Below, in pieces: positions 5,376-6,148 of a stretch of DNA of 7,833 nt; within the stretch, counting starts at the first letter, position 1, and every line of letters begins with the position of its first letter. The notes beneath the pieces were generated by a model. It was given only the letters and a program-made list of their open reading frames with translations. It made no database searches and was not told where the DNA came from. The stretch is from a virus (taxonomy: Duplodnaviria; Heunggongvirae; Uroviricota; Caudoviricetes): IMG/VR virus record IMGVR_UViG_638341082_000003, positions 1 through 7,833 of that record; one strand, written 5' to 3'. Made by a program: the position numbers and the translations under genes.

Positions 5376-5840
5376 ATGTCTGTATATACAACTGCAGAAT
5401 TACTGGCATCGACCCAGCATCACTTTAAGTTCGATCCGCTGTTTCTGCGCCTGTTTTTCCGTGAAACCTATCCTTTCACCACGGAAAAAGTCTATCTCTC
5501 ACAAATTCCGGGACTGGTAAACATGGCGCTGTACGTTTCGCCGATTGTTTCCGGTGAGGTTATCCGATCCCGTGGCGGCTCCACCTCTGAATTTACGCCG
5601 GGTTATGTCAAACCCAAGCATGAGGTGAATCCGCAGATGACCCTGCGTCGCCTGCCGGATGAAGATCCGCAGAACCTGGCTGACCCGGCTTACCGTCGTC
5701 GCCGTATTATTCGGCAGAATATGCTGGATGAAAATCTGGCGATTGCCCAGGTCGAAGAGATGCAGGCAGTTTCTGCCGTGCTTAAGGGCAAATACACCAT
5801 GACCGGTGAAGCCTTCGATCCGGTTGAGGTGGATATCTGA
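5376..5840 (+). pseudogene. E: Major capsid protein gene E, 5' fragment (154 of about 341 codons)
   Basis: MSVYTTAELLASTQHHFKFDPLFLRLFFRETYPFTTEKVYLSQIPGLVNMALYVSPIVSGEVIRSRGG...GEAFDPVEVD matches the lambda gpE N-terminus from memory with scattered substitutions. Homology ends at about 5836, followed by I-stop where lambda continues MGRSEEN... Confidence 0.9.
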
Positions 5841-6148
5841 TGCTCTCGCCGTCCCTGAATGCAGCACAGGCCACGTTTGATGCGGTGGATAACAGCAACA
5901 GTGATGTTGTGGCTGTTATGGCCTCGGTCACTTACCGCGGTGCTGATGCCCCCAATAACTGCCTGGCCTGGAAAGTGAAAAATGGCAGCCATGCAGGTGC
6001 AACGATTACAGAGAATGGCGTACAAAGCGACACAAACAGCTGGACGACTGTCTCACAGAGTTTTATGGCCCAGCCAGGCGGAGAAACGCCTTTCACAAAG
6101 GGTGAACTGACTTTCACAGCGGAATTGTTTAATCAGGCAAGGACATAA
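5840..6148 (+). CDS. Hypothetical protein, 102 aa; possibly the 3' remnant of a tail gene made translatable by the deletion joint
   Basis: ATG 5840-5842 overlaps the E' stop TGA 5838-5840 and follows GAGGTGG at 5826-5832. The frame is open only from 5828. The product is Ser/Thr/Gly/Ala-rich and looks beta-rich. No homolog recognised. Confidence 0.4.
   Translation: MLSPSLNAAQATFDAVDNSNSDVVAVMASVTYRGADAPNNCLAWKVKNGSHAGATITENGVQSDTNSWTTVSQSFMAQPGGETPFTKGELTFTAELFNQART

Follow-up and report, generated by a model that had tools for sequence, protein, structure and literature searches.

In the defective lambda-like prophage of E. coli 101-1, the major capsid gene E retains the first 153 of its 341 codons, which are followed by the 3' part of a gene for a 349-aa protein of the tail-fibre module, and this joint is very probably the scar of an internal deletion of ~14 kb that arose by short-homology, RecA-independent recombination in a prophage residing at the potB site. 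The window analyzed here, i.e., the whole stretch of 7,833 nucleotides, comprises positions 1-7833 of contig AAMK02000005.1 (assembly GCA_000168095.1). Since the prophage cannot make particles, the joint is, as a deletion scar, ordinary prophage decay. The part of interest beyond a routine scar with an accidental stop/start overlap is its right endpoint: CCGGA^TATC, at codons 245-246 of this phrog_8291 gene, is the endpoint of at least six independent rearrangements, the one in the window included, with E, V, Stf-N, sheath, terminase A and the 369-aa gene as the left or other partners. This recurrence is modestly surprising and points to a fragile or preferred site in the 349-aa gene or to selection to keep the C-terminal cassette.

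The joint between E and the 349-aa gene

Both parents of the joint can be traced. Positions 5376-5836 align with nucleotides 1-461 of the phage Perceval major capsid gene (99.6-99.8% identity; megablast against phages), and the match ceases at 5836, in agreement with a preliminary description of this DNA, which had placed the end of E homology at about that position. In a megablast search of 5,426 complete E. coli genomes, the sequence from 5831 on is 100% identical to part of the gene for the 349-aa 'hypothetical protein', behind which the 369-aa gene and a tail-fibre assembly gene are located. A direct three-way alignment with both parents showed that the two matches overlap by the 6 bp GGATAT (5831-5836, plus strand) and that no bases are inserted; because this hexamer is common to both parents, the breakpoint is an interval, 5831-5836, rather than a point. 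Together with parents that are colinear in the gene orders of TW10828 and AST85, these are the features of a microhomology-mediated deletion joint.

The truncated E gene (5376..5840, plus strand) encodes 153 native residues followed by Ile and a stop codon, and its 154-aa product is annotated as EDX40053.1 in E. coli 101-1. The product is 99.4% identical to residues 1-154 of Perceval E, and its residues 5-148 match positions 1-138 of 329 of PF03864, the profile of the lambda gpE-type major capsid protein (E=7.5e-25); residues 1-153 are all that is present of a complete capsid-fold protein of about 341 aa. The E frame ends in V-E-V-D-I-stop (ATC TGA) with the TGA at 5838-5840, and an ATG at 5840 opens a 102-codon ORF, both exactly as first read; the cut in E had also been recognized correctly, but at codon ~151 instead of after residue 153. 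When the full-length 341-aa E was searched by tblastn against 15.8 kb of the contig, no further E was found and only residues 1-154 were matched. This excludes that E is merely interrupted by a sequencing-type frameshift, with its frame resuming further on.

Downstream of the window, the contig carries a methyltransferase gene followed by potB, potA, pepT, roxA and phoQ. The 101-1 prophage adjoins potB, and lambdoid prophages are found at the identical site in related strains: TW10828 has an apparently complete one, ranging from Nu1 to the tail fibres, and AST85, E300010 and E600003/E400634 carry differently decayed ones. AST85 is a close relative with 99.6% identity to the window on either side of the gap, and its gene order at potB is J, Stf-N, 349-aa gene, 369-aa gene, Tfa. 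Because the AST85 prophage carries the cassette after J and Stf-N with these nearly identical flanks, a simple internal deletion suffices to explain the joint. Its extent in the composite of TW10828 and AST85 is 12,387 + 1,915 nt, i.e., ~14.3 kb; as no intact reference unites both parents, both this size and a deletion in a single step are deduced from the composite of two relatives, and several successive steps, or an exchange with another prophage bearing the same cassette, may alternatively have led to the same arrangement. As had been proposed, E is missing its 3' part and the head-completion and tail genes are gone, and the interpretation as a deletion joint, likewise proposed before, is supported by the two parents, the microhomology and three assemblies.

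In the deletion, we infer, RecA-independent illegitimate recombination across the GGATAT hexamer, presumably by replication slippage or end joining, would have connected codons 152-153 of E to codons 245-246 of the 349-aa gene. The remainder of E, the genes for head completion and for the whole tail shaft and tip and, in addition, the lectin-like domain at the N-terminus of the 349-aa protein would thereby have been eliminated. In E. coli, deletions at microhomologies do not depend on RecA (PMC2621351).

An artefact, in which the assembly had connected two sequences at a repeat or a frameshift error interrupted an intact E, is extremely improbable and was rejected. Many genomes do contain the cassette in several copies, a typical place of assembly breaks, and the two independent Logan read-set contigs that cross the joint (SRR28411845; SRR9418184 and four more samples) both end at the equivalent of window position 5860, 24 nt past the joint, where the multi-copy cassette begins. 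However, these two and the NCBI contig AAMK02000005.1 agree on the joint and extend across it from unique sequence on the left into 24 nt of the cassette, no continuation of E is present in 15.8 kb of the contig, and analogous joints are present in long-read complete genomes. Moreover, a k-mer chimera is not possible because the parents have just 6 nt in common, far under any assembly k-mer. The joint was present in none of the 5,426 complete E. coli genomes and is thus confined to one lineage. A scan of one genome per species yielded no exact match either, which is uninformative because E. coli is represented there by another strain.

Within the window, a first deletion joint at 5114-5117 connects portal gene B to decoration gene D with an overlap of ~1 nt, the left side ending in GACGGGTA directly before a T, and 2.4 kb are lost in comparison to TW10828; both window deletions are specific to the 101-1 lineage. 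In AST85, the region from head gene C to tail gene I is replaced by an element joined into J (L003 7460-12870), which carries integrase, HTH regulator, BRO-N, Icd-like and DUF4222 genes and may represent a satellite-like element or what is left of another prophage.

The C-terminal ORF and the tail-fibre genes

The sequence to the right of the joint had been taken for unrelated DNA, which turned out to be wrong, as it represents the last 102 codons of the 349-aa gene in their native frame. The 102-codon ORF (5840..6148, plus strand) encodes residues 248-349, the C-terminal beta-sandwich domain of the phrog_8291 protein, and its product matches profile positions 248-349 with E=1e-64, which excludes that 5837-6148 is derived from E. 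The ATG at 5840 is the native in-frame codon for Met248 in the intact genes of TD225-C4 and AST85, and over this region the identity to intact copies from other strains is 100%. The family, PHROG 8291, is of unknown function and part of the tail-fibre module; its relatives all have about 345-390 aa, come from enterobacterial prophages and share the invariant residues G245-Y246-L247. An AlphaFold model (pLDDT 90) has strands at 256-347. The joint falls in the linker, and the 102-codon ORF is the C-terminal domain and lacks the N-terminal jelly-roll (lectin/lyase-like) domain that a full-length phrog_8291 protein would have. Pfam gave no match for the 102-aa, 349-aa and 369-aa proteins, and a PDB sequence search returned nothing useful. 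In an exhaustive HMMER search of 1.84 billion representatives, the C-terminal domain was seen solely at the C-terminus of ~350-aa proteins, and we therefore rejected a natural stand-alone gene as an explanation of the 102/104-aa ORF. With respect to annotation, both the 154-aa 'capsid protein' and the 102-aa 'hypothetical protein' are fragments and not genes.

An apparent counterpart of 104 aa in gut metagenomes (74% identical) is in reality a full-length gene whose frame is shifted by a deletion upstream: about 50 nt are missing just upstream of the equivalent of GGATATCTGATG (L012 300-400; L011), for which reason gene callers report a C-terminal ORF of 104 aa. This relative is followed by a ParB-like gene, and its host element may be a phage-plasmid. 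One public source names a product identical to the 102-aa protein 'Fimbrial protein', a name for which we found no support.

Natively, the cassette belongs to prophages with contractile tails, where it follows a Mu gp48-like baseplate gene, and in the lambdoid prophage of AST85 at potB it sits downstream of J and Stf-N. In the window, the ORF is followed by two intact genes on the same strand, a 369-aa tail-fibre gene (6179..7288; phrog_6859 tail fiber, E=4e-169) and a called gene for a 176-aa tail-fibre assembly protein, or chaperone (7303..7833; PF02413, phrog_136). The 369-aa gene contains a gix/pix-like invertase core, AAACC-NN-GGTTT, at 6478-6489, and its inverted-repeat partner TTCCTGTAAACCGAGGTTTT lies beyond the 3' end of the window; such partner cores occur in inverted orientation at L006 8143-8154 and 8701-8712, beside alternative fibre/chaperone gene fragments. 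As no invertase gene remains, the invertible segment is frozen.

Expression signals at the joint

At the joint, the stop codon of the truncated E overlaps the start codon of the 102-codon ORF in the pentamer TGATG (5838..5842, plus strand). According to the preliminary description this overlap was created by the deletion; the pentamer itself, however, is native to the downstream gene and occurs in all intact copies of the 349-aa gene, and only the use of its TGA by the E frame is new. An accident of frame would thus have placed the end of E on a pre-existing TGATG and made the internal Met248 the first start of an ORF whose product is precisely the C-terminal domain.

The ATG is preceded by the E-derived, Shine-Dalgarno-like hexamer GAGGTG (5826..5831, plus strand), which ends 8 nt before it and for which an anti-SD duplex of -10.3 kcal/mol at a spacing of 7 was computed. 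The proposed role of GAGGTGG as Shine-Dalgarno sequence is hence plausible as judged from the sequence. For comparison, the values at the starts of the 369-aa gene and the chaperone (Tfa) gene are -11.5 and -9.2 kcal/mol, and the equivalent ATG has -7.2 kcal/mol in the intact gene, -3.5 at joint J3 and -5.6 at joint J2 (see below). With a stop/start overlap and a Shine-Dalgarno sequence 5-10 nt upstream, the arrangement has the sequence features of a translationally coupled pair, and termination-reinitiation or direct initiation at the ATG would be plausible if a late transcript were made.

The suggestion that the truncated E leader is presumably still highly translated found no support. The E start has a weak Shine-Dalgarno sequence (-3.3 kcal/mol), and a GC-rich, terminator-like hairpin followed by U7 (5337..5362, plus strand; identified from the sequence, RNA folding and a hairpin scan) ends 14 nt upstream of the E start. 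This element between D and E resembles an intrinsic terminator within the late operon; the arrangement is native, as intact relatives are alike. E is a late gene in a Q-dependent operon, so that its transcription requires antitermination by Q. Q and the pR' region lie outside the contig, which starts within the lysis genes. Expression of the 102-codon ORF upon induction therefore appears possible and would depend on late transcription.

A recurrent breakpoint in the 349-aa gene

The recurrent endpoint lies at 5830-5836 in the window and at L004 13981-13986, L009 9011-9017, L033 2993-2997, L022 368-373, L015 2700-2707 and L034 about 2992-2998 in the further loci. Apart from the joint in the window (J1), four right-retaining joints were recovered. 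At the same locus in E300010 (J2), the tail tube gene V is cut at codon 128, and ATCGGT is followed with zero overlap by TATCTGATG, which results in an in-frame fusion of V to the C-domain and recreates Gly-Tyr-Leu. In E600003, E400634, E500002 and more than 20 other assemblies or metagenome contigs (J3), Stf-N is joined at codon ~153 via CGGA. Two Logan contigs contribute a joint with a tail sheath gene, reading GACGG/TATCTG (J5), and a joint with terminase A at codon ~352 via GGATA (J6). A left-retaining joint, J4, connects the N-terminal part of the gene up to GGAT(A) to the 3' part of the 369-aa gene, its endpoint being 1-2 nt from the putative break; joints of this type were absent from the complete genomes. 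Finally, one allele of the 349-aa gene has an additional T, and hence a +1 frameshift, at the recurrent spot. The cassette may start at 5831-5837 in J1, at 5834 in J2, at 5830-5834 in J3, at 5834-5836 in J5 and at 5831-5836 in J6, so that position 5834 is common to the permitted starts of all five right-retaining joints.

That these joints are independent events is indicated by the differing cassette alleles next to J1, J2 and J3. In the 340 nt after the joint, the J1 allele is identical to the intact allele of AST85, TD225-C4 and JNE25-001, and the J2 allele is identical to the intact copy that E300010 itself carries elsewhere in the genome; at J3 the allele is yet another one, with SNPs located 17-21 nt from the joint, and intact copies of it exist as well. 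If endpoints were distributed uniformly, the probability that two further endpoints fall into the same 7 nt of the 741-nt N-terminal part is P ~9e-5, a calculation that takes in only the joints found without bias, namely the window joint together with J2 and J3 from DNA searches; J5 and J6 were recovered via 102-aa products, an approach biased towards joints close to Met248.

The recurrent site is not obligatory, as one truncation, between TMP and the 349-aa gene, lies 95 nt upstream of it, and intact copies are in the large majority (~88 of ~92 in the complete genomes). A 16-mer scan of metagenomes from IMG/VR and JGI gave mostly chance matches and, after filtering, 22 true copies, 21 of them intact and one of the J3 type.

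Of the left break sides compared, seven of 11 end in GG(N)TA, such as GGATA/T, GGGTA/T or TGGTA/, among them those at window 5114, L009 1724, L019 1803, L033 2996, L022 372 and L015 2706. This comparison is post hoc and based on a small sample, the frequency of GG[AG]TAT in the reference prophage is 0.78 per kb, and the pattern may be due to chance or be a by-product of microhomology.

Preferred site or selection

With regard to the cause of the recurrence, we lean towards a preferred site at the level of the DNA over selection. A site-specific nick or break or a pause of replication at CCGGA^TATC, a sequence that includes the palindrome GATATC, followed by microhomology joining to upstream DNA, appears about as probable as not, if slightly less so. 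All five right-retaining joints, with their differing left partners, are compatible with a break at 5833/5834, and J2, having zero overlap, fixes the break at this very position. The left-retaining joint ends 1-2 nt away from it and the allele with the additional T is altered at the same spot, the clustering of the three unbiased events is improbable under uniform endpoints (P ~9e-5), and the left partners have CGG, GGA or GGATA in common with the site. On the other hand, we identified no nuclease or recombinase for CCGGA^TATC. The site is without the AAACCNNGGTTT core of Din invertases, and a Din-family invertase site (gix/cix/pix; 26 bp, AAACC-NN-GGTTT) at the joint was rejected, since no core is present in 5820-5850 and the real one lies 640 nt downstream (cores at 6478-6489 and L006 8143-8154). 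As to CRISPR self-targeting, no spacer match was found in the 5,426 genomes, in which an 80-nt query matched only the 60 records carrying the gene, exact words of at least 28 nt being visible. A blunt cut of the EcoRV type (GAT/ATC) was rejected as well, because J2 and J3 retain T5834. A local hairpin is no better than in shuffled sequence (z -1.3), and inspection by eye revealed neither a lambda cos-like sequence nor Chi near the recurrent site. Furthermore, the microhomology on the left side of the putative break is difficult to reconcile with a simple end there and speaks for annealing or template switching.

Selection would mean that decayed prophages are kept only when the genes for the C-domain, the tail fibre and the chaperone stay translatable, the TGATG overlap being functional; a joint directly ahead of Met248 would then dispose of the N-terminal domain cleanly and at the same time couple the cassette to the ORF upstream. 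We regard this as rather unlikely. It would be in line with an upstream truncated ORF that ends at the TGA of TGATG in four of the five joints (J1, J3, J5 and J6), while the fifth, J2, is an in-frame fusion recreating Gly-Tyr-Leu, and with the joint lying in the invariant G245-Y246-L247 linker, directly N-terminal to a separate beta-sandwich domain; in addition, all such remnants have kept the 369-aa and Tfa genes intact. However, selection for a domain boundary would tolerate ~100 nt of linker and not 5 nt, and in-frame fusions anywhere upstream would serve equally well and should outnumber the joints at CCGGA^TATC. The Shine-Dalgarno sequences at other joints are poor (-3.5 and -5.6 kcal/mol), four out of five joints in one frame is only weakly significant (about 0.05), and the C-terminal domain was never encountered as a natural stand-alone gene in the exhaustive search. 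Selection alone cannot account for single-nucleotide precision.

Discussion

As an overall interpretation, we put forward, tentatively and as a possibility that falls short of an even chance, that CCGGA^TATC is a natural, sequence-specific hot spot of illegitimate recombination or, alternatively, that truncations are selected for a coupled cassette of C-domain, fibre and chaperone; either way, the decay of these prophages would be non-random. If the hot spot is true, it would represent a natural case of one-sided, sequence-directed illegitimate recombination that shapes prophage decay. If selection is true, it would mean that a tail-fibre cassette is retained and expressed by bacteria after the loss of the phage.

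Translational coupling via ATGA or TGATG overlaps is found in many phage late genes and in the trp operon. There, as at the 101-1 joint, the upstream stop overlaps the next ATG, and the Shine-Dalgarno sequence lies within the upstream coding sequence at 7-8 nt. The 101-1 joint differs in that it appears, judging by the reading frames, to be an accidental product of a deletion, its start codon being an internal Met of a longer gene.

Invertible tail-fibre segments are known from Mu (Gin/gix), P1 (Cin/cix) and e14 (Pin). The 369-aa gene resembles these systems in its gix-like core and the inverted partner downstream beside alternative fibre/chaperone fragments; in contrast to them, the 101-1 prophage has its core 640 nt to the right of the joint and none at the joint, and has no invertase gene.

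DLP12, Rac and Qin are cryptic (defective) lambdoid prophages of K-12. Similar to the 101-1 prophage, they are lambdoid prophages inactivated by internal deletions, in which terminase and head fragments are left together with intact tail-fibre and assembly genes near the right end. The 101-1 prophage differs from them by its site beside potB, by deletions that are specific to the 101-1 lineage, and by a right endpoint that coincides with those of independent deletions in other lineages. We know of no description of such a coincidence of endpoints across lineages for the K-12 elements. Defective prophages have been reviewed under the term 'grounded prophages' (PMC6379469).

Large deletions between short direct repeats, as at the 101-1 joint, are also seen among RecA-independent spontaneous deletions of E. 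coli, namely the lacI deletions (Albertini et al. 1982) and lambda bio illegitimate recombination (Ikeda and co-workers), both cited in PMC2621351. Hot spots are known for these experimental systems, in which a hot spot is a recurrent pair of repeats, whereas at CCGGA^TATC one partner is fixed and the other one varies, with microhomologies of 0-6 bp.
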